This document shows positions 24,229-31,595 of a stretch of 64,000 bases of DNA, one piece after another. The stretch is from Spirochaetia bacterium (GTDB taxonomy: Bacteria; Spirochaetota; Spirochaetia; CADAEX01). The position numbers and the translations under genes were made by a program. The DNA is taken from assembly GCA_017642445.1 (NCBI GenBank), contig JAGCPA010000077.1, forward strand, positions 13,661 through 77,660, in the 5' to 3' direction. The notes beneath the pieces are model-generated. The model was given only the letters and a program-made list of their open reading frames with translations, ran no database searches and was not told the DNA's origin. Each line of letters begins with the position of its first letter. Position 1 is the first letter of the stretch.

Positions 24229-26705
24229 TGCAACCACATGAACTGCCGGTCTACCGGCACAAAGAGACAATATTAGAGTACATAAAAAATAATAAAGTAA
24301 TAGTAATAGAGAGCCCCACAGGAAGCGGAAAGACAACACAGCTTCCTATGATTTTATACGAGGCAGGGTTCTCCACAAACGGAATAATCGGCGTGACACA
24401 GCCACGGCGCATAGCAACCCTTTCGGTATGCGACTACATAGCGCGCCAGCTGGGCTGCGAGGTTCCAGGCACTGTGGGCTACAAGATGCGGTTCGCAGAC
24501 CAGACCATATCAAGCACCAAGATCAAGATAATGACAGACGGCATACTGCTGCAGGAGATAAAGTTCGACCCATACCTGTCGCAGTACAGCTGCATAATTG
24601 TGGACGAGGCACACGAGCGGAGCCTTAACATAGACTTCATACTCGGCCTTCTGAAGAGGATCTCCAATGTGCGGGACGACTTCAAGATAATCATATCGTC
24701 GGCAACCATAAACACATCGGTCTTCTCCGAATACTTCGGCGGCTGTCCCGTAGTCCACATCGACTCAAAGATGTATCCGGTGGGAGTTGTCTACGACCCA
24801 GTGCCTGAGGATGCAAGACCCGAGGAGCTCCTGCTCAAGGTGGGGGACATCGTGGAGCGGTGCATCAGGGAGGAGCGCGAAGGAGACATCCTTATATTCC
24901 TTTCGGGCGAGAAGATGATAAAGGACTGCATAACTATGCTGGATGCAAGCCCAGTGCGGGACAAGCTTATGCTGCTGCCGCTTTACGGAAGGCTCTCCAA
25001 GGAGGAGCAGGAGCGGATCTTCATAGAGACACCGCCCGACAAGACCAAGGTGATAGTTGCAACCAATATCGCAGAGACCAGCGTCACCATTGATGGAATA
25101 ACCACAGTTATAGACTCAGGCCTTGCCAAGATAAACACCTACAACACACGGACATTCACATCATCGCTTTTAGAGGCACCTATCTCAAAGGCATCGTGCA
25201 ACCAGAGGAAAGGAAGGGCCGGAAGAACACAGTCGGGCACATGCTACAGGCTCTACACCAAGCAGAGCTTCGAGAGCCGTGTCATGTTCACCAAGGAGGA
25301 GATCTACCGCACCGACCTGTCAGAGGTTATCCTGCGTATGGCAGAGCTGGGGATCACAGACTTCGAGTCCTTCGACTTCATCTCTTCCCCTGAGAAGAAC
25401 GGCATAAAGAGCGCTATCGAGACTCTTGTCATGCTGGATGCCCTCAACGACGACAACACACTGACAAAGATAGGCGAGATGATGGCGGCCTACCCTCTTC
25501 TGCCACGGCTGTCCAGAATGCTGGTGGAAGCTATCCTCAAGTATCCCGACGTCATCGAGGAGACTATCATAGCTGTCACATTCCTCTCCACCAACAGCCC
25601 GTTCCTGCTGCCGCAAGGTATGGAGATGGAGGCGCGCAAGGCACACCATTCCTTCCGGAGCAAGTATGGCGACTTCGTATCCTACATCGATATATACGAC
25701 TCCTTTGTGAACGCCGAGCACAAGGAGGAGTTCTGCGACTCAAACTTCCTGGACCTGAAGGTTATGAACGAGATTGTCAGCATCAAGGAGCAGCTTGAGG
25801 ACATTGTGGGGGAGCAGGGAATCCCTGTATCTGGCGGCGGCAGTGTCGAGAACTACCTGAGCGCCGTTGCAAAGGGCCTTATACAGTTTGTATGCGTCCG
25901 CACCGGAAAAGGTGCATACTCAAGCCTTACCGCCGAGCGCATCTTCATCCACCCAGGCTCTGTGATGTTCCACGAGAACCCCGATTTCATCGTAGCCGGC
26001 GAGATAGTGCGCACCAGCCGCATGTATGCCCACTCTGTATCGCCTCTCAACACCGAGATACTCAAGAGGATATCGCCTGAGCTTGCCGCAAAGCTGACCA
26101 CCGCCATCCAGAAGGAGGCCAAGGGCAAGGAGAAGGCAGACAACGCATGGCAGATCAAGATAGGCAACCAGTTCTTCGAGCTCAAGAAAGGCAAGGGAAA
26201 CAAGAACAAGACTGCGATACTCCAGTGGGAGAATCTGGCCAAGGTGATCAAGTCGGGCTCGTTCGTTGTTGACCCGCAGTCCAAGGATCTCAAGTGCAAG
26301 GTTATGTGGCACGACATGGAGTTCCTTACAAATGAGAAGCTGCGGGATGTGAAGCGGATGATCCCATATATCCACCCCGAGCGGAAGTTCAAAGAGGAGC
26401 TGCCTTTTGTGGGAAGCATAAGCGCGAACAAGCACTTCGACCAGCTGGCCGACTGCATGGATATACTCCTCTGGCTGTGCCCAAAGAAGAAGAACGGCAA
26501 GGTGCTGGGCTTCATGACACTGCACACCGACGAGAGGGGCAACTACTGGATCAAGTCGGACCGGAGCTTCGACAACTCGGTGCTCACAACACTGGGAAGC
26601 CTCGAGATGCTTATGGACCAGGTGCCTGAAAAGGCAAACCCCAAGAGCATAAATAAGGTGAACTCAACCTACCGGTTCTTCAGCGAGATACTGAAAAAGT
26701 ACTAA
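24228..26705 (+). CDS. DEAH-box ATP-dependent helicase, HrpA/HrpB family
   Basis: Motif I is ESPTGSGKTTQLP, motif II is IVDEAHERS, then SATIN, TNIAETSVTIDG and QRKGRAGR. Its start overlaps the hisS stop (TAATG). Confidence 0.85.
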   Translation: MQPHELPVYRHKETILEYIKNNKVIVIESPTGSGKTTQLPMILYEAGFSTNGIIGVTQPRRIATLSVCDYIARQLGCEVPGTVGYKMRFADQTISSTKIKIMTDGILLQEIKFDPYLSQYSCIIVDEAHERSLNIDFILGLLKRISNVRDDFKIIISSATINTSVFSEYFGGCPVVHIDSKMYPVGVVYDPVPEDARPEELLLKVGDIVERCIREEREGDILIFLSGEKMIKDCITMLDASPVRDKLMLLPLYGRLSKEEQERIFIETPPDKTKVIVATNIAETSVTIDGITTVIDSGLAKINTYNTRTFTSSLLEAPISKASCNQRKGRAGRTQSGTCYRLYTKQSFESRVMFTKEEIYRTDLSEVILRMAELGITDFESFDFISSPEKNGIKSAIETLVMLDALNDDNTLTKIGEMMAAYPLLPRLSRMLVEAILKYPDVIEETIIAVTFLSTNSPFLLPQGMEMEARKAHHSFRSKYGDFVSYIDIYDSFVNAEHKEEFCDSNFLDLKVMNEIVSIKEQLEDIVGEQGIPVSGGGSVENYLSAVAKGLIQFVCVRTGKGAYSSLTAERIFIHPGSVMFHENPDFIVAGEIVRTSRMYAHSVSPLNTEILKRISPELAAKLTTAIQKEAKGKEKADNAWQIKIGNQFFELKKGKGNKNKTAILQWENLAKVIKSGSFVVDPQSKDLKCKVMWHDMEFLTNEKLRDVKRMIPYIHPERKFKEELPFVGSISANKHFDQLADCMDILLWLCPKKKNGKVLGFMTLHTDERGNYWIKSDRSFDNSVLTTLGSLEMLMDQVPEKANPKSINKVNSTYRFFSEILKKY

Positions 26706-27097
26706 AGGACAGAAACTCCCAGAGATTTTGCCAGAGCCTTGAACTTCTTGTCCGTGGTCAGAAGAGTTGCCCCGTTGTGCCGGGCAAGCACCAAATAGAA
26801 CATATCGTAGATGCTGTGTCCCAGCCGTATTCCCTCGTGCAGGGCTTCTATTGCCAGCTCGCTGGTGTCAGTGTATTCATCCACCATCTGCAGGAGATAA
26901 GCGAGAGTCTTCCTTGCATTCTCCTCATCTACCGCACCATTCCGTGCATATTTCCAAAGCACATTGGTCACCTCAGAGTCAAACAAAGTGGGTGCAATAA
27001 CTTTCTCTGCACCAGCAACCGCATTCATGAAGAGACTATATTTAGGCCCATGAAAAGCAATCTCAAAGGCAGCGCAGGTATCTAAAACATAAATCAT
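26702..27097 (-). CDS. vapC: PIN-domain toxin, VapC family
   Basis: 131 aa. The acidic PIN residues fall in VLDT, DSEV, YDMFY and TTD contexts. A 4-nt overlap links it to the upstream small gene. Confidence 0.85.
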   Translation of the reverse strand: MIYVLDTCAAFEIAFHGPKYSLFMNAVAGAEKVIAPTLFDSEVTNVLWKYARNGAVDEENARKTLAYLLQMVDEYTDTSELAIEALHEGIRLGHSIYDMFYLVLARHNGATLLTTDKKFKALAKSLGVSVL

Positions 27098-27366
27098 CTG
27101 AGCCTGCCTCCCCTACTGAGACCATCCCTGTCCTGCCGCACCAGATCAGCTGGAGAAGGGGAATGGGAAGGCAGATGAAGTTCCAGAGCATCAAGATCAT
27201 TCAGCACCCTGCGGCGCCGTGCGCCGTTCTTGTTATCATCTGCGTTTAATATGGAAGTAAGCAGGAAAATAACCTGCTGGGGAACTGTACGGTTCTGCTC
27301 CTTGGCCACCTGAGCCAGAATCTGATATGTCTCCTGGGGAAAATCCCGGACCTGTAATAATGCCAT
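27094..27366 (-). CDS. VapB/FitA-like antitoxin (RHH-type)
   Basis: MALLQVRDFPQETYQILAQVAKEQNRTVPQQVIFLL is the N-terminus of an RHH antitoxin. ATG 27366 has AAGGAG upstream, whereas the ORF-track start is 27396. Confidence 0.6.
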   Translation of the reverse strand: MALLQVRDFPQETYQILAQVAKEQNRTVPQQVIFLLTSILNADDNKNGARRRRVLNDLDALELHLPSHSPSPADLVRQDRDGLSRGGRLR

Positions 27367-27375
27367 AAATGCTCC

Positions 27376-27407
27376 TTGTATGCAAAATGATATCAACTTG
27401 CATACAA
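27376..27407. promoter_or_regulatory. Perfect 10-bp inverted repeat, candidate VapBC autoregulatory operator
   Basis: TTGTATGCAA, 12 nt, then TTGCATACAA. It lies immediately upstream of the vapB SD and start. Confidence 0.5.
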
Positions 27408-27433: not shown

Positions 27434-28210
27434 TTGTCAAATTTCCAACTTTTTTCTCCAAAGTCAAATCAAAATGAAGATTTCATGTTCCAATTAACCA
27501 AAGATGAAACAGAAATACTATCGAGGTCAAAAATTTTGACCTCGATAATGCAGACAGAAGGCATGAGAGGTGGCCGCGTATATCTCCCACATGCTTTTAC
27601 AGAACAGGGCATCTATATGCTTATGACGGTTCTAAAGGGAGAATTGGCAACTAGGCAAAGCATTGCTTTAGTCCGACTATTCAAGCAGATGCGCCACTAC
27701 TTTGCCGAAAATGCTGGAGTAATCAGCAGATTATCTTCCACAGAAACAAAATTGATTGAGCACGATCAAAAAATTAACACTCTTTTCACCCTCATGAACA
27801 AATATAAGATTGAGGATAAACAGGGTGTATTTGTCCAGGGGCAGATATTCGATGCATACATTGCTTTTCAAAATATAATTCAAAAAGCCCAGAAAGAAAT
27901 TATACTGATTGACAATTATATTGACCTGACTGTGCTGGAAAGGCTCTCCAAGAAGAATCCAAATGTGCAGGTTATCATTTACACTCAGCCCAACACTCAA
28001 ATATCAAATATTGATATAAACAAGTTCAATACCCAATACCCTACTCTAACCATAAAGCATACAAAAAAAATGCATGACCGCTTCCTGATAATTGACAACG
28101 CCGAGATTTATTTCATCGGAGCATCTGTAAAAGATTTAGGGAAGAAATGCTTTGCATTTATGCAACTTGAAGATGCACAGTGGATTAGAACAGTGCTCAA
28201 TGCTTTATAA
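27434..28210 (+). CDS. ORF6N-family protein lacking the N-terminal part of the ORF6N/KilA-N-like domain, with a C-terminal HDRFLIID...GAS (PLD-like) region
   Basis: NEDFMFQLTKDE...GRVYLPHAFTEQGIYMLMTVLKGELATRQSIALVRLF matches the distal half of ORF6N domains. The frame opens only at 27419. The start is uncertain, either TTG 27434 or ATG 27485. Confidence 0.6.
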   Translation: MSNFQLFSPKSNQNEDFMFQLTKDETEILSRSKILTSIMQTEGMRGGRVYLPHAFTEQGIYMLMTVLKGELATRQSIALVRLFKQMRHYFAENAGVISRLSSTETKLIEHDQKINTLFTLMNKYKIEDKQGVFVQGQIFDAYIAFQNIIQKAQKEIILIDNYIDLTVLERLSKKNPNVQVIIYTQPNTQISNIDINKFNTQYPTLTIKHTKKMHDRFLIIDNAEIYFIGASVKDLGKKCFAFMQLEDAQWIRTVLNAL

Positions 28211-28322
28211 TCACCACTCGATATAGGGCACGCCCAGCTGCTCCTCAAGCCACAGCGCTATCTCGCCCGCTATGTTCTCCAGCTTGGTATCCATGGCCAA
28301 AGTATACCACAGAAATAAAACA

Positions 28323-28371: not shown

Positions 28372-28608
28372 ATGCCAATCGATAAGACAAAAATAACAAA
28401 AGAGATGCTTGAGAAAGCAGCAAAGTGCAAGACTGCTGATGAACTGATTGCTCTGGCCAAGTCCGAAGGCGTTGACCTTACAAAAAATGAAGCTGTGGCT
28501 TATCTTGAAGAACTCCAGAATGTGGAACTGGATGAAAAGGCCCTGGATAAGGTAGCTGGCGGTGGCTGTTATCCAGATTGTCCAAAAGATTATTGCTTTG
28601 AAAATTGA
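28372..28608 (+). CDS. Nif11-like-leader RiPP/bacteriocin precursor with a Gly-Gly motif and a 13-aa three-Cys core
   Basis: 78 aa. The leader ITKEMLEKAAKCKTADELIALAKSEGVDLTKNEAVAYLEEL...ELDEKALDKVAGG fits the Nif11-type leader pattern. The core is (G)CYPDCPKDYCFEN. Confidence 0.7.
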   Translation: MPIDKTKITKEMLEKAAKCKTADELIALAKSEGVDLTKNEAVAYLEELQNVELDEKALDKVAGGGCYPDCPKDYCFEN

Positions 28609-28667
28609 TGCTTGACAGATAAGCAATTAAAGTCTCTTTTACTATTTATAACTGATTATGCGTTATA

Positions 28668-28693
28668 AAGCCCCTTAATCGGGGCTTTTTTTA
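28668..28693 (+). terminator. Rho-independent terminator after the RiPP gene
   Basis: AAGCCCC, loop ttaatc, GGGGCTT, followed by a T-run. Confidence 0.7.
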
Positions 28694-28696
28694 TTT

Positions 28697-28723
28697 CCTG
28701 TAGCATTATTTGACACACCCAGG
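28697..28723 (+). repeat. Left copy of an inverted repeat / promoter-like element
   Basis: CCTGTAGCATTATTTGACACACCCAGG. Its reverse complement matches 32421-32447 with a 16-nt perfect core (TCAAATAATGCTACAG) plus flanking matches. Confidence 0.6.
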
Positions 28724-28751
28724 CTGTAAAATGACTGCAGGAGGACAGTAT

Positions 28752-28868
28752 ATGGAGATAAGTTTCACCCTTACCCTGACAGATAACAGCATGGTAGCCT
28801 GTGTCGTCGGCCTTTCAGTCATATTCTTGATCGTATTCGGGTTTAAGGCCTTACGAGAAACGAAATAA
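28752..28868 (+). CDS. 38-aa single-pass membrane peptide (unannotated small ORF)
   Basis: My own translation gives MEISFTLTLTDNSMVACVVGLSVIFLIVFGFKALRETK. A consensus AGGAGG SD lies 7 nt upstream. The ORF is too short for the ORF track. Confidence 0.45.
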   Translation: MEISFTLTLTDNSMVACVVGLSVIFLIVFGFKALRETK

Positions 28869-28904
28869 AGTTTTAGCAGAGAGGAATGCGGAAAGAATTA
28901 TTAA

Positions 28905-29105
28905 TTATAAAAGTCTTTCCATTGCGTCATTTTCATCGACAAACACAGTCTGCTCCTCGCCGCAACATATGGTATGAACTTCATAATTAATATCAGGGAA
29001 CCCAGCGCCTGCAAAATTTACATATTCAACTTTTGCATTATGCACACATTGCTCTTTATCACAATACCAATAGATAGTATCCCCTGCTCTGAACTTTGTC
29101 ATCAT
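28905..29105 (-). CDS. 66-aa Cys-containing protein of unknown function, translationally coupled to the DUF2075 gene
   Basis: An ATGA overlap (29102-29105) joins it to the upstream gene. Its AT-rich composition matches the partner gene. I recognise no family for it. Confidence 0.55.
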   Translation of the reverse strand: MMTKFRAGDTIYWYCDKEQCVHNAKVEYVNFAGAGFPDINYEVHTICCGEEQTVFVDENDAMERLL

Positions 29106-31150
29106 ATTATTTCTAGCCCAATCTGCCTTAAATATTCATAGGTTGGATCATAATACTCTAGTTTTCGTGTTTTATCTTTATTATTTCCTTCTGGAACAAC
29201 TATTATCATACCTTGGCGAGCTCTGGTTAATAAAACCCTATATGCATTCAGCTGATATTTTTTATCATCTTCTGCATTAATATGAAGCCATTTACCGCCT
29301 CTAAAAGCATAGTTTTGCCAACCGTTTCTTGAATACCGAAAATCTCCATCCCAAATCACACATGCCCAATCCAGCTCAAGACCTTGAATATCAAATTCTG
29401 TCGCTGCATCTTCAAGGAAAAGTGATGAACGAATATCCTCTTTGTCAGCTAAAAACCAATGTACTGTATCAGGATTTTGGCGAACATCAATAGCTAATGG
29501 CTTAAGTCTATTAGCTTTTGAAGATACTATCATTCCATAACGTTCGGAACCTCTTGCTTTTTTGACCAACCATTCTTTTGCTTTATCAAGTGAACGCGTT
29601 AGAATAATAGGATAAGTTGTCTTAATTTCATCATGTAAATTTTTAGCTTTTTGAATATTTAAATCAAGTAATTCATGAATAAAGTTTGATACTTTTTCTG
29701 ACCTGAATGAACGCATTGAAACAGCCAAATGTAAAGCTGAGTTTTCGACAACACTTTTATTATTTAATAAAAGTTGTTTTAATTTTCCGTCTGCATATTC
29801 TTTTTCTGTTAATTGATTTGAAATATATATTTTCCAATTAGGAAATCTTTCATCAAGAGAACGAATCCATTCAGAGATGCCAGCTTCTCCTGTATTTATT
29901 TCTTGCCCTCCACCAACTAGGCAAATAATTACTGCCCAATCAGGACGCTGGTCCAAAGACCAGATAAGGAACTCTGGTTCTGAAAATGGAAAACTATTTA
30001 TATGTTTTCTTCTTTTTAGCCAACGAAACAATTGCTCTTGAGTCCAAGCCCTTTGGGCCTCATCAAATATTGCAACATGTTCCACTTCTGCATATCCATC
30101 ACTCTTATTTTTCTTTATTTTTGTTTCATCGATTTCTATAGCTTTATTAACAATTGGAAATTTTATTTTTTCAAGAAATGTATTTCGATAATGATGAACA
30201 ATTTGAATAAAAGCACGTACCTCACGTCTCGCATCAGTAATCGAATATTTTTTCTTATTTTTCTGTTCCTCCTGTCGTTTTTTATCTCGAGCTAAAGCCT
30301 CAGAAAGAACACTTACAAGTGGTTGATTTCCAGAAAGATAAACTGCTAAATCTTTCTTATCATATTGTTCTATAGCAACTTGCAATCCGACTAATGTTTT
30401 TCCAGCACCAGGAACACCTGTCACAAAACAAATAGCTTTTTCTTTGCTTTGTCTTGTCTTTTCAATTATCTCTAATATGTATTTATTAGTTTTTACTAAA
30501 TTTTCTGCAGACGCCTCTGTTTTAATAATATCTTCAACAGTATGATTATTAAATAATACACTTGCTGCTTGAATAATTGTTGGAGTTGGGGAATATCTGC
30601 TGTTTGCCCATTCTAGAATATTATCACAGAAATTGTTTTCAGTTTTTTCTAGTATTTCCTTAATAATTGGATAAAGACTTTCTTCGTTAGAACAAATTGG
30701 TTCATAAACCTTATCATCATAATAACATGATAGATATTTATGTGATCGTTCTTTTGCCTTAGTTGCAACTAAAATTGGAACAATTACTTTATCATGACTT
30801 GCTTCATGGAAATTTTTAAGATCTAAAGCATAGTCCCAAACCTGTTCAATATCACTACGCAAATAATCTTTTTTACCGACTTTAAATTCCAATACAAATA
30901 TTATTCCATGGAAAACTAAAATAACATCAGCTCTTTTTCCTAGTCGAGGAATTGAATATTCAAATAATATTCGACCTTCAGAAAAATGGTTAACAATGTT
31001 TTTCATTATGATTATTTCATCAAGCCATGCTTCCATTTGTAGAGTATTAGAATCAAATGTATTTTCTCTTGCTATTTTCCCTAATATTTCATTTTCTGAT
31101 TGAGAAAGGAATTTAGAAAAAGAATCTTTGTAATAATATCGTTCCAACAT
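29102..31150 (-). CDS. DUF2075-type (Schlafen-helicase-like) P-loop NTPase with an N-terminal PD-(D/E)xK-like nuclease module
   Basis: 682 aa. The N-terminus has E64...D75...E88-F-K90 (GKRADVILVFHGIIFVLEFKVGK). Walker A is VTGVPGAGKT and Walker B is VAIFDEAQRAW. The C-terminal YRVLLTRARQGMIIV resembles the UvrD_C_2 region. Confidence 0.85.
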   Translation of the reverse strand: MLERYYYKDSFSKFLSQSENEILGKIARENTFDSNTLQMEAWLDEIIIMKNIVNHFSEGRILFEYSIPRLGKRADVILVFHGIIFVLEFKVGKKDYLRSDIEQVWDYALDLKNFHEASHDKVIVPILVATKAKERSHKYLSCYYDDKVYEPICSNEESLYPIIKEILEKTENNFCDNILEWANSRYSPTPTIIQAASVLFNNHTVEDIIKTEASAENLVKTNKYILEIIEKTRQSKEKAICFVTGVPGAGKTLVGLQVAIEQYDKKDLAVYLSGNQPLVSVLSEALARDKKRQEEQKNKKKYSITDARREVRAFIQIVHHYRNTFLEKIKFPIVNKAIEIDETKIKKNKSDGYAEVEHVAIFDEAQRAWTQEQLFRWLKRRKHINSFPFSEPEFLIWSLDQRPDWAVIICLVGGGQEINTGEAGISEWIRSLDERFPNWKIYISNQLTEKEYADGKLKQLLLNNKSVVENSALHLAVSMRSFRSEKVSNFIHELLDLNIQKAKNLHDEIKTTYPIILTRSLDKAKEWLVKKARGSERYGMIVSSKANRLKPLAIDVRQNPDTVHWFLADKEDIRSSLFLEDAATEFDIQGLELDWACVIWDGDFRYSRNGWQNYAFRGGKWLHINAEDDKKYQLNAYRVLLTRARQGMIIVVPEGNNKDKTRKLEYYDPTYEYLRQIGLEII

Positions 31151-31208
31151 GTTAATATTTTATTCCATTTATTGAAAAAAAACCACCAAAAAATTATACT
31201 TCTCCCAT

Positions 31209-31595
31209 ATGAAGATCATCCATGTAGTAGCAGCCATCATTATCAAGGACCACAAGCTCTTTGCCACCCAGCGGGGGTACGGCGAGTTCAAGGACGGCTG
31301 GGAGTTTCCCGGTGGCAAGGTGGAGCCTGGTGAGACTCCCCAGGATGCCCTAAAAAGGGAGATCCGGGAAGAACTGGCCACCGAGATAGAGGTGGGCGAC
31401 TACATCAGTACCATCGAATACGACTACCCCACTTTCCACCTCTCCATGGAATGCTATGCCTGCTCAATAATTTCCGGCAGGTTGGAACTTCTGGAGCACG
31501 AGAACGCAGCCTGGCTCTCAAAAGAGACTTTGCGTACAGTCTCTTGGCTCCCCGCCGACTTAAGTATTCTAGATAAAGTGGAAAAATTGCTTTAA
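31209..31595 (+). CDS. NUDIX hydrolase, MutT/NudG-like
   Basis: The Nudix box is GGKVEPGETPQDALKREIREELATEI. The protein is 128 aa. Confidence 0.9.
   Translation: MKIIHVVAAIIIKDHKLFATQRGYGEFKDGWEFPGGKVEPGETPQDALKREIREELATEIEVGDYISTIEYDYPTFHLSMECYACSIISGRLELLEHENAAWLSKETLRTVSWLPADLSILDKVEKLL

Follow-up and report, generated by a model that had tools for sequence, protein, structure and literature searches.

A putative nuclease-helicase gene of the PDC-S41 family and an overlapping 66-codon gene in an AT-rich islet of a rumen Spirochaetia genome: a probable cargo slot for defence genes

Introduction

Nuclease-helicase immunity (Nhi), encoded by SERP2475 of S. epidermidis, is an experimentally validated single-gene defence (Bari et al., 2022), as is the system termed Nhi-like (Millman et al., 2022). 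According to the accessible portions of these reports, the two have no sequence identity with one another (Millman et al., 2022), and Dda and Upf1 are predicted structural homologues of Nhi (Bari et al., 2022); the same portions report no small partner gene for either system. Both combine an N-terminal nuclease of the PD-(D/E)xK type with a DUF2075 helicase of superfamily 1 (SF1). Here, a locus of similar architecture is described from a 64,000-nucleotide (nt) stretch of a Spirochaetia bacterium (assembly GCA_017642445.1, contig JAGCPA010000077.1, positions 13,661 to 77,660), called the window throughout. In it, the gene for a 682-amino-acid (aa) DUF2075 protein overlaps the start of a 66-codon open reading frame (ORF). 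A sequence-only reading of the window had proposed that the two genes form a dedicated two-component defence or abortive-infection unit.

Candidate defence genes have also been catalogued by genomic position. The PDC systems, 145 candidates in all, were picked out because their genes lie within systems of the BREX, DISARM and type I restriction-modification (R-M) kinds (Payne et al., bioRxiv 10.1101/2024.01.29.577857). One of these candidates is PDC-S41, to which the large gene belongs, and a literature search found no paper on it.

The comparisons set out below favor, with moderate confidence, the reading that the locus is a cargo slot of a defence island, in which an autonomous Nhi-type effector resides together with a small gene that is either a portable accessory or a legacy of other cargo. 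The proposal of a dedicated two-component DUF2075 unit is largely refuted.

The large gene encodes a putative PDC-S41 nuclease-helicase

The features at the center of this analysis are the following.

29102..31150, minus strand: 682-aa putative nuclease-helicase, a member of PDC-S41 (Pfam PF09848, PADLOC, motifs, AlphaFold2 model, Foldseek)
28905..29105, minus strand: 66-aa acidic protein, a predicted SH3/Tudor-like beta-barrel (homologues, AlphaFold2 model, Foldseek, isoelectric point, dN/dS)
29102..29105, minus strand: ATGA stop/start overlap, the translational coupling site (sequence and junction comparison)

Both ORFs, and the 4-nt overlap that joins the stop of the first to the start of the second, lie where the sequence-only reading had placed them; the junction reads GAA ATA ATA TGA in the large gene and ATG ATG ACA, in the +1 frame, in the small one. 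No prominent internal promoter or terminator was found between the two genes, the count of promoter-like sequences being that expected from shuffled sequence.

The large protein matches the Pfam family SLFN-g3_helicase (DUF2075, PF09848) over aa 238-653 (E=2.7e-77; 260.9 bits against a gathering cutoff of 24) and the PADLOC model PDC-S41 from end to end (E=1.1e-269, 894 bits; protein residues 3-680 against profile positions 2-651 of 657), which is its sole PADLOC match at E<=0.1. The residues and motifs first picked out by eye (E64, D75, E88-x-K90, the Walker A motif GVPGAGKT at 245-252, FDEAQ at 362-366 and YRVLLTRARQGMIIV at 637-651) are all in place and, NAYRVLLTRARQGM included, are conserved across 21 homologues of 42-80 % identity; D75, E88-x-K90, GVPGAGKT and DEAQ (363-366) are invariant in the homologue alignments. 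The PD-(D/E)xK-like module occupies approximately aa 55-130, and in the AlphaFold2 (AF2) model residues 36-129 have the topology alpha-beta-beta-beta-alpha-beta, as is typical for PD-(D/E)xK nucleases. No Pfam, NCBIfam or PDB sequence match was obtained for aa 1-237, nor any meaningful PDB relative of the whole protein by sequence or profile.

The top Foldseek matches of the large protein were SLFN11 (PDB 7zep, E=1e-4) and T4 Dda, with RecD and Upf1 also recovered. Because the AF2 model is poor, the TM-scores to SLFN11 are low (0.26), and the fold search is used as weak corroboration only. The group 3 Schlafens (SLFN11, SLFN5 and SLFN13), of which SLFN11 is the best PDB fold match, belong to the same family PF09848, but where they carry the Schlafen core the bacterial protein has a PD-(D/E)xK-like N-terminus. 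The likeness to Nhi and Nhi-like, for its part, is one of architecture (a predicted N-terminal nuclease of PD-(D/E)xK type followed by the DUF2075 helicase) and of Dda and Upf1 as fold neighbors, whereas the large protein matched no Nhi model in the PADLOC search, a library whose content for Nhi is unconfirmed.

PDC-S41 is a large family, with at least 7998 clusters at E<1e-100, and its members adjoin the methyltransferase (MTase) and specificity genes of type I R-M systems, McrB, NUDIX-GmrSD and PDC-S14; the window's gene is itself adjoined by PDC-S05, PDC-S07 and a PIN-type toxin-antitoxin (TA) module. Pfam and PADLOC thereby bear out the earlier description of a nuclease-like module joined to a DUF2075 P-loop helicase in a defence-gene context, and the PADLOC search that the sequence-only reading had suggested assigns the large protein to PDC-S41, the neighboring NUDIX protein to PDC-S07 and the product of 27434..28210 to PDC-S05. 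By analogy with Nhi, the large gene is best read as encoding a stand-alone candidate effector, a nuclease-helicase of PDC-S41. Little changes in this respect, since the gene adds a further member to a candidate family that had been catalogued before and has Nhi architecture. PDC-S41 is defined as a single-gene system, and the coupled 66-aa gene of the window copy falls outside that definition. The earlier remark that no described system has this composition is thus true for the pair, while the large gene alone is already listed and has a validated architectural analogue in Nhi and Nhi-like.

The small gene encodes an acidic protein of a narrow family

Homologues of the 66-aa protein form a narrow family of gut and rumen metagenomes, comprising 14 close clusters, 231 clusters at 90 % identity by profile search, and 43 representatives at 50 % identity among 1.84 billion proteins. 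Members are 66-82 aa long and uniformly acidic (median isoelectric point 4.45, net charge -4 to -15, with -7 for the window copy). The protein has no match in Pfam, PADLOC, NCBIfam or PHROGs, none in the PDB by sequence or profile, and none by tblastn in viral contigs, phage records or plasmid records. The ratio of nonsynonymous to synonymous substitution (dN/dS), computed from codon alignments, is 0.03-0.25 in every genomic context, including behind an R-M operon, and the ORF is a genuine gene under purifying selection.

The AF2 model of the 66-aa protein consists of four strands (pLDDT 91.3), in agreement with the beta-rich character noted earlier. When this model was searched against PDB and BFVD with Foldseek, only generic SH3-like barrels of the Tudor, chromo-barrel and ribosomal KOW type were returned (TM 0.6-0.74, probability >=0.95, best E 0.067, none <=0.001), and the fold is predicted to be an SH3/Tudor-like beta-barrel. 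The four Cys residues that had drawn attention are present in the window copy, but only C15 is invariant among aligned close relatives; position 20 has H, R or E instead of Cys even in some of these, and distant members no longer have the C47-C48 pair. Because the Cys residues vary in this way among homologues, there is no conserved metal site, and a Cys4 zinc-ribbon or zinc-knuckle was rejected, the Cys pattern failing in homologues and the predicted fold being an all-beta SH3-like barrel. The acidity of the protein speaks against DNA binding, so that it is probably, at low confidence, protein-binding. In one 172-aa homologue (P0155), the small domain is fused to an N-terminal region of unknown nature.

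Most relatives of the large gene lack the small gene

Comparison loci are cited below by number (L001 and so on). Among 28 species-level genome loci with a PDC-S41 homologue, 27 are missing the small gene, and the exception is the near-identical L077, a Spirochaetia metagenome-assembled genome (MAG) from goat reticulum whose locus is 98 % identical to the window. The sequence-only reading had itself set non-conservation of the small ORF beside DUF2075 homologues as refuting a two-component unit, and non-conservation is what was found. Pairing of DUF2075 with the small gene is limited to the rumen Spirochaetia lineage (the window, L005, L007, L008, L010, L017, L077 and L114-116) and a few Bacteroidales loci.

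The gene is also absent from L117-L125, which include relatives of intermediate divergence. Downstream of the 71 % homologue (L117, 3001-6215), a 376-aa SLFN_AlbA_2 protein with HATPase_c_4 and winged helix-turn-helix (wHTH) regions is encoded 42 nt away. As a separate observation, L117 thus carries, as adjacent bacterial genes, two signature modules of the eukaryotic group 3 Schlafens. In one 63 % relative, a NUDIX domain fused to a GmrSD_N/GmrSD_C type IV restriction protein follows directly after the PDC-S41 gene (L118:5033-7330), in another a tetratricopeptide repeat (TPR) protein lies downstream, followed by NUDIX and McrB, and a 62 % relative has no co-directional gene downstream at all.

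Because the vast majority of family members are without the small gene, the large gene would not need the small protein. This absence, from the species-level homologues and from the 71 %, 63 % and 62 % relatives alike, makes it improbable that the 66-aa protein is the dedicated sensor, regulator or inhibitor of a two-component DUF2075 system, and the same conclusion is favored by the single-gene form in which PADLOC models PDC-S41, by the predominance of HNH_2 genes as partners of the small family, and by the small gene being kept, and still selected for, where an R-M operon occupies the same slot (both described below). What speaks for such a unit is the stability of the pair where it does occur. 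In Spirochaetia, the ATGA overlap persists across 73-100 % identity of the large protein, and purifying selection on the two genes is similar, dN being equal (0.113 vs 0.113; 0.181 vs 0.190). Bacteroidales loci (L041, L046, L111 and L038) show a second, independent adjacency of the small gene and DUF2075. The Spirochaetia pair is a case of vertical co-inheritance at one locus. Accordingly, the part of the earlier proposal that stands is a conserved, translationally coupled small gene of mostly restriction-type neighborhoods; its dedication to DUF2075 does not.

The usual neighbor of the small gene is a solitary HNH_2 endonuclease gene

A pattern scan of contigs yielded 70 metagenome loci in which the gene upstream of the small ORF was mapped, with the following outcome.

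Full-length HNH_2 gene of about 257 aa, ending -1 to +10 nt from the small-gene start: 42 of 70 loci
Only a 3' remnant of the HNH gene: 6 of 70 loci
NUDIX gene upstream (one fused): 4 of 70 loci
DUF2075 gene directly upstream: 4 of 70 loci
Something else or nothing: 10 of 70 loci
Contig edge: 4 of 70 loci

Other upstream contexts include a type II R-M operon and HepT, and only at L044, L048 and L049, among the loci examined, does no restriction- or defence-type gene lie beside the small gene. When 48 distinct small proteins were placed in a neighbor-joining tree, the copies linked to DUF2075 fell in two clades nested among HNH-linked ones. Remnants of the HNH gene precede intact small genes at L041, L046, L059-61 and L068, and in L041 and L046 the order is DUF2075, a 27-aa HNH remnant, and the small gene.

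The approximately 257-aa partner is assigned to HNH_2 by Pfam and aligns with the PADLOC 'HNH' model PDLC04132 from end to end. Its catalytic domain is homologous to PDB 6yex (E=1.7e-13) and in part to the NCBIfam model PT-DNA_restrict, which describes a phosphorothioate (PT)-dependent restriction endonuclease. We take PDB 6yex to be VcaM4I, an enzyme dependent on 5-hydroxymethylcytosine or 5-methylcytosine. In Hymenobacter and Neisseria, HNH homologues that are full-length and 36-41 % identical occur without the small gene. The best explanation of these patterns is that the ancestral and dominant context of the small gene would be the 3' end of a solitary HNH_2 restriction-type endonuclease gene, the product of which is probably modification-dependent.

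The closest described enzymes are the solitary HNH type IV modification-dependent restriction endonucleases (MDREs) of the VcaM4I/TspA15I group and the ScoMcrA-type PT-dependent enzymes. They resemble the usual partner in the homology of the HNH_2 domain and in the lack of an adjoining MTase gene, none being present beside HNH_2 in the gene tables of L001-4, L105-110 and L128-131. Unlike them, the partner has an N-terminal region of about 120 aa without a match to a known reader domain (PUA, SRA or DUF3427), and the accessible part of a paper on such enzymes mentions no small accessory gene (PMC6765204). Short ORFs of 44-76 aa with no family match recur just upstream of HNH_2 (2518-2688 in L001-L004; 3708-4141 in L108), and a 64-aa ORF lies upstream of DUF2075 in L114-116 (2492-2686 in L116); these ORFs could encode regulators.

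As the small gene is absent from members of both nuclease families, it is the obligate partner of neither. For the same reason, an obligate inhibitor or immunity model was rejected, PDC-S41 and HNH families both occurring without it.

Cassette exchange and a possible origin of the junction

A case of exchange is L009, from a related spirochaete, where two small ORFs, a C5-MTase, a BpuJI_N/NOV_C endonuclease and a second C5-MTase, together a type II R-M operon, precede the small gene. The left end of L009 matches window positions 31192-31268, which cover the NUDIX start and the adjoining intergenic region, and homology resumes 3 nt before the small-gene ATG. These flank matches indicate the same chromosomal slot, in which DUF2075 was swapped for the R-M operon and the small gene was kept; the L009 copy is still under selection (dN/dS 0.03-0.10). 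Similarly, L043 and L044 have an identical small gene and downstream flank and diverge from 15 nt upstream of the start.

Junctions with the sequence ATATGA were compared in the window, L010, L116, L097, L111 and L123. In the clade of the window, PDC-S41 genes end in ATA TGA, and the next gene, whether small, NUDIX or TPR, starts at that ATG. A 10-nt microhomology, ATGAAAACAA, is found at the ATATGA end of DUF2075 both where the small gene begins in L010 and L116 and where the NUDIX gene begins in L097. A microhomology deletion in an ancestral array of DUF2075, NUDIX, perhaps HNH, and the small gene could therefore have produced the clean junction.

These breakpoints, 3-15 nt before the small-gene start, together with the HNH remnants upstream of intact small genes and the ATGAAAACAA microhomology, are what would be expected if the small gene had no functional relation to DUF2075. 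It would then be left over from an HNH-small or NUDIX-small cassette, or be an orphan immunity- or antitoxin-like gene, placed in the ATGA register by deletion and kept for reasons of its own or as a homology anchor. A small acidic protein encoded behind a nuclease is reminiscent of an immunity gene product, and orphans of this kind occur frequently. Such an account is possible though unlikely, because strong purifying selection acts everywhere with no decay, fusions of the small domain to NUDIX are stable, adjoining restriction or defence genes are lacking only at the three loci given above, and relatives of both HNH and DUF2075 without the small gene show that it is not an obligate inhibitor.

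The locus may also be compared with nuclease-immunity pairs (colicin E9-Im9, barnase-barstar and toxin-first type II TA modules). As in those pairs, a small acidic protein is encoded directly downstream and coupled, and orphans survive decay of the nuclease. In contrast to them, the small gene is not obligatory for either nuclease family, the same small protein follows nucleases of unrelated folds and occurs fused to NUDIX, and its predicted SH3/Tudor-like barrel is neither the Im nor the barstar fold. Fusion to NUDIX and adjacency to two unrelated nucleases argue for a protein-level adaptor or modulator over a cognate immunity protein, and the small protein is probably, at low confidence, a protein-binding accessory and not a DUF2075-specific sensor or antitoxin.

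A wider network of restriction-type genes

NUDIX genes recur around both genes of the pair. The small domain is fused to NUDIX in P0130 (206 aa), P0132 and L056:4590-5210, and NUDIX lies directly upstream of the small gene in L038, L043 and L045. It overlaps the end of DUF2075 through ATGA in L097 and L111 and lies 21 nt downstream of DUF2075 in L103. In L111-113 (Bacteroidales), the small gene, DUF2075, NUDIX and HNH_2 follow one another, all co-directional. Elsewhere, a PDC-S07-like NUDIX overlaps the start of an McrB-like AAA_5 gene (L123:7448-8049). NUDIX hydrolases thus look like recurrent components of type IV restriction loci, and NUDIX genes linked to SauUSI-like type IV enzymes have already been noted in the literature, as have, in the accessible part of one paper, DUF2075 genes adjoining MDREs of the McaZI group (PMC6765204). 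Very-short-patch repair endonuclease (Vsr) genes are found within a few kb in 40 of 132 loci and are recurrent neighbors of HNH-small loci. Taken together, the links among HNH, small, NUDIX, DUF2075 and Vsr genes suggest, and do not prove, a common theme of modified-DNA surveillance.

Two small acidic ORFs without a family match flank the four-gene cluster of the Bacteroidales MAG, at L111:4659-4985 (108 aa) and L111:8690-8956 (88 aa); they may be accessory or immunity-like genes.

One way to accommodate these links is to regard the window's pair as a reduced form of a larger modular system directed against modified (cytosine-methylated or similar) DNA, in which HNH_2 might be a modification-dependent nuclease, DUF2075 a helicase-nuclease processor, NUDIX a sanitizer of modified dNTPs and the small protein a reader or adaptor, often with Vsr nearby. 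HNH-small, DUF2075-small, DUF2075-NUDIX and NUDIX-small adjacencies all occur, the four genes are co-directional in L111-113, NUDIX is fused to GmrSD_N (L118) and adjoins McrB (L123-125), and the homologies of the HNH domain and the frequency of Vsr point in the same direction. Even so, the idea is rather doubtful. The components usually occur singly, most PDC-S41 loci having none of the others, the Hymenobacter and Neisseria HNH homologues do without the small gene, and the window NUDIX is host-like in GC and divergently transcribed. Moreover, co-location in the defence islands of related gut bacteria could give such adjacencies without joint function, and the modification dependence of the HNH_2 partner is putative.

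A related proposal centers on the small protein, which might be a portable accessory subunit for unrelated immune enzymes (a solitary HNH type-IV-like endonuclease, PDC-S41 and, as an occasional fusion partner, a MutT/NudG-like NUDIX). In this role it could serve all of them as reader or adaptor, recognizing for instance a modified-base ligand, a phage protein or a host hub protein. HNH, small, NUDIX and DUF2075 genes, with or without Vsr, would then make up a modular, restriction-like system, as yet undescribed, of anaerobes from gut and rumen. This proposal is tentative and on present evidence unlikely.

Since the window NUDIX scores just below the NCBIfam equivalog cutoffs of MutT and NudG, and Vsr is a recurrent neighbor, the cluster might instead be a set for DNA repair or mutation avoidance (MutT-like NUDIX, Vsr, HNH nickase, helicase-nuclease and small accessory) and not for immunity. 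This is very improbable in view of the foreign composition of the islet (31-38 % GC), the swapping of cargo between strains, and the R-M, McrB, GmrSD and TA genes found as neighbors; PADLOC also lists PDC-S41, PDC-S07, PDC-S05 and PDC-S14 as defence candidates, and the Nhi and Nhi-like architectures are experimentally antiviral.

The islet and its other genes

The GC content of the DUF2075 gene (0.317) and the small gene (0.378), compared with 0.52-0.53 for the flanking HisS, HrpA and NUDIX genes, establishes that the AT-rich islet (31-38 % GC) reported earlier is real in this rumen Spirochaetia genome of approximately 52 % GC. An Rfam search for structured RNA in the islet gave only sub-threshold noise. 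Its surroundings contain the following features.

31209..31595, plus strand: MutT/NudG-like NUDIX hydrolase, PDC-S07 (Pfam NUDIX and NUDIX_4; PADLOC E=3.7e-50)
27434..28210, plus strand: 258-aa ORF6N-domain protein, PADLOC candidate PDC-S05 (E=8e-92)
28214..28297, minus strand: 28-aa remnant of Vsr (tblastn, 85.7 % identity to the Vsr of L005)
27094-27396, minus strand: putative antitoxin of 100 aa, upstream of and overlapping the PIN gene (same pair in L005)
26702-27097, minus strand: PIN-domain (VapC-type) toxin (Pfam PIN, E=5e-13)

The NUDIX gene diverges from the DUF2075 gene and has host-like GC (0.519). On the other side, the PIN gene and the 100-aa ORF upstream of it, which substantiate the TA module proposed earlier, form a conserved left flank of the islet that recurs in L005. 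The PDC-S05 gene is variable cargo, absent from related strains, with Vsr and RelB in its place in L005; it represents a second single-gene candidate for defence inside the same islet. An intact Vsr gene occupies the position of the remnant in L005, L010, L077 and L114-116, and Vsr was probably truncated on arrival of the PDC-S05 and Nif11 cargo.

Two small peptides are also encoded here. At 28372-28608 (plus strand), a Nif11-like leader peptide of the ribosomally synthesized and post-translationally modified peptide (RiPP) type matches TIGR03798 below cutoff (E=2.7e-5). The peptide combines a GG motif with a Cys-rich core, CYPDCPKDYCFEN, and a strong terminator (28667-28688) lies after its gene; it has no adjoining maturation enzyme and is not present in the related strain L005. 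A 183-nt block (28687-28869) is 90 % identical to L010, above the approximately 78 % of the flanking protein genes. It encodes, convergently with the small gene, a small hydrophobic peptide, MEISFTLTLTDNSMVACVVGLSVIFLIVFGFKALRETK, either as an ORF at 28710..28868 (plus strand) or as 38 aa from an ATG at 28755, the latter being called as a 38-aa gene in L005. This peptide resembles type I toxin-like membrane peptides and has no Rfam match.

Weighing the cargo-slot reading

In the reading favored here, the slot would lie between the MutT-like NUDIX gene and a VapBC module of a rumen Spirochaetia chromosome. By analogy with Nhi, the SF1 helicase of the large protein, which is Dda/Upf1/SLFN11-like and ATP-driven, would load on DNA of the invader or on intermediates of replication, which the PD-(D/E)xK module at the N-terminus would then cut. 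The small gene would be retained at the 3' edge while the nuclease cassette upstream of it (HNH, DUF2075 or a type II R-M operon) is exchanged, and would be co-transcribed and translationally coupled with whatever lies upstream. Its product may modulate or target the nucleic-acid or nucleotide enzymes to which it is linked or fused, namely HNH, DUF2075 and NUDIX.

Several observations weigh against this reading. PDC-S41 is a single-gene candidate only, defined by guilt-by-embedding. For the large protein, AF2 gave only a mediocre model (pLDDT 67, pTM 0.48), and the fold matches of the small protein are non-significant. Most of the loci surveyed belong to rumen and gut metagenomes, and the loci lack phylogenetic independence. 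A pair that has remained overlapped through approximately 27 % protein divergence, with equal dN, also fits a true functional pair, and the proximity of DUF2075 and the small gene in four arrangements (window, L041, L038 and L111) exceeds what accidental legacy would lead one to expect.

Concluding remarks

The small protein represents an uncatalogued family without a Pfam, NCBIfam, PHROG or PADLOC model, and its gene behaves as a mobile 3' accessory of restriction-type nucleases. HNH_2, PDC-S41, the NUDIX hydrolase PDC-S07 and the small protein are linked by adjacency, by cassette swapping and, for NUDIX, by fusion, and of the readings that are left, the broader modular system of HNH, small, NUDIX and DUF2075 genes is the most interesting. 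Should the link be no more than legacy, the locus is still a clean natural case of cassette exchange at a defence slot, with breakpoints placed within a few nucleotides. If it is functional, the small protein would help to find out what is sensed by PDC-S41, PDC-S07 and the solitary HNH enzymes, and would exemplify an accessory subunit that can be exchanged in type-IV-like restriction.

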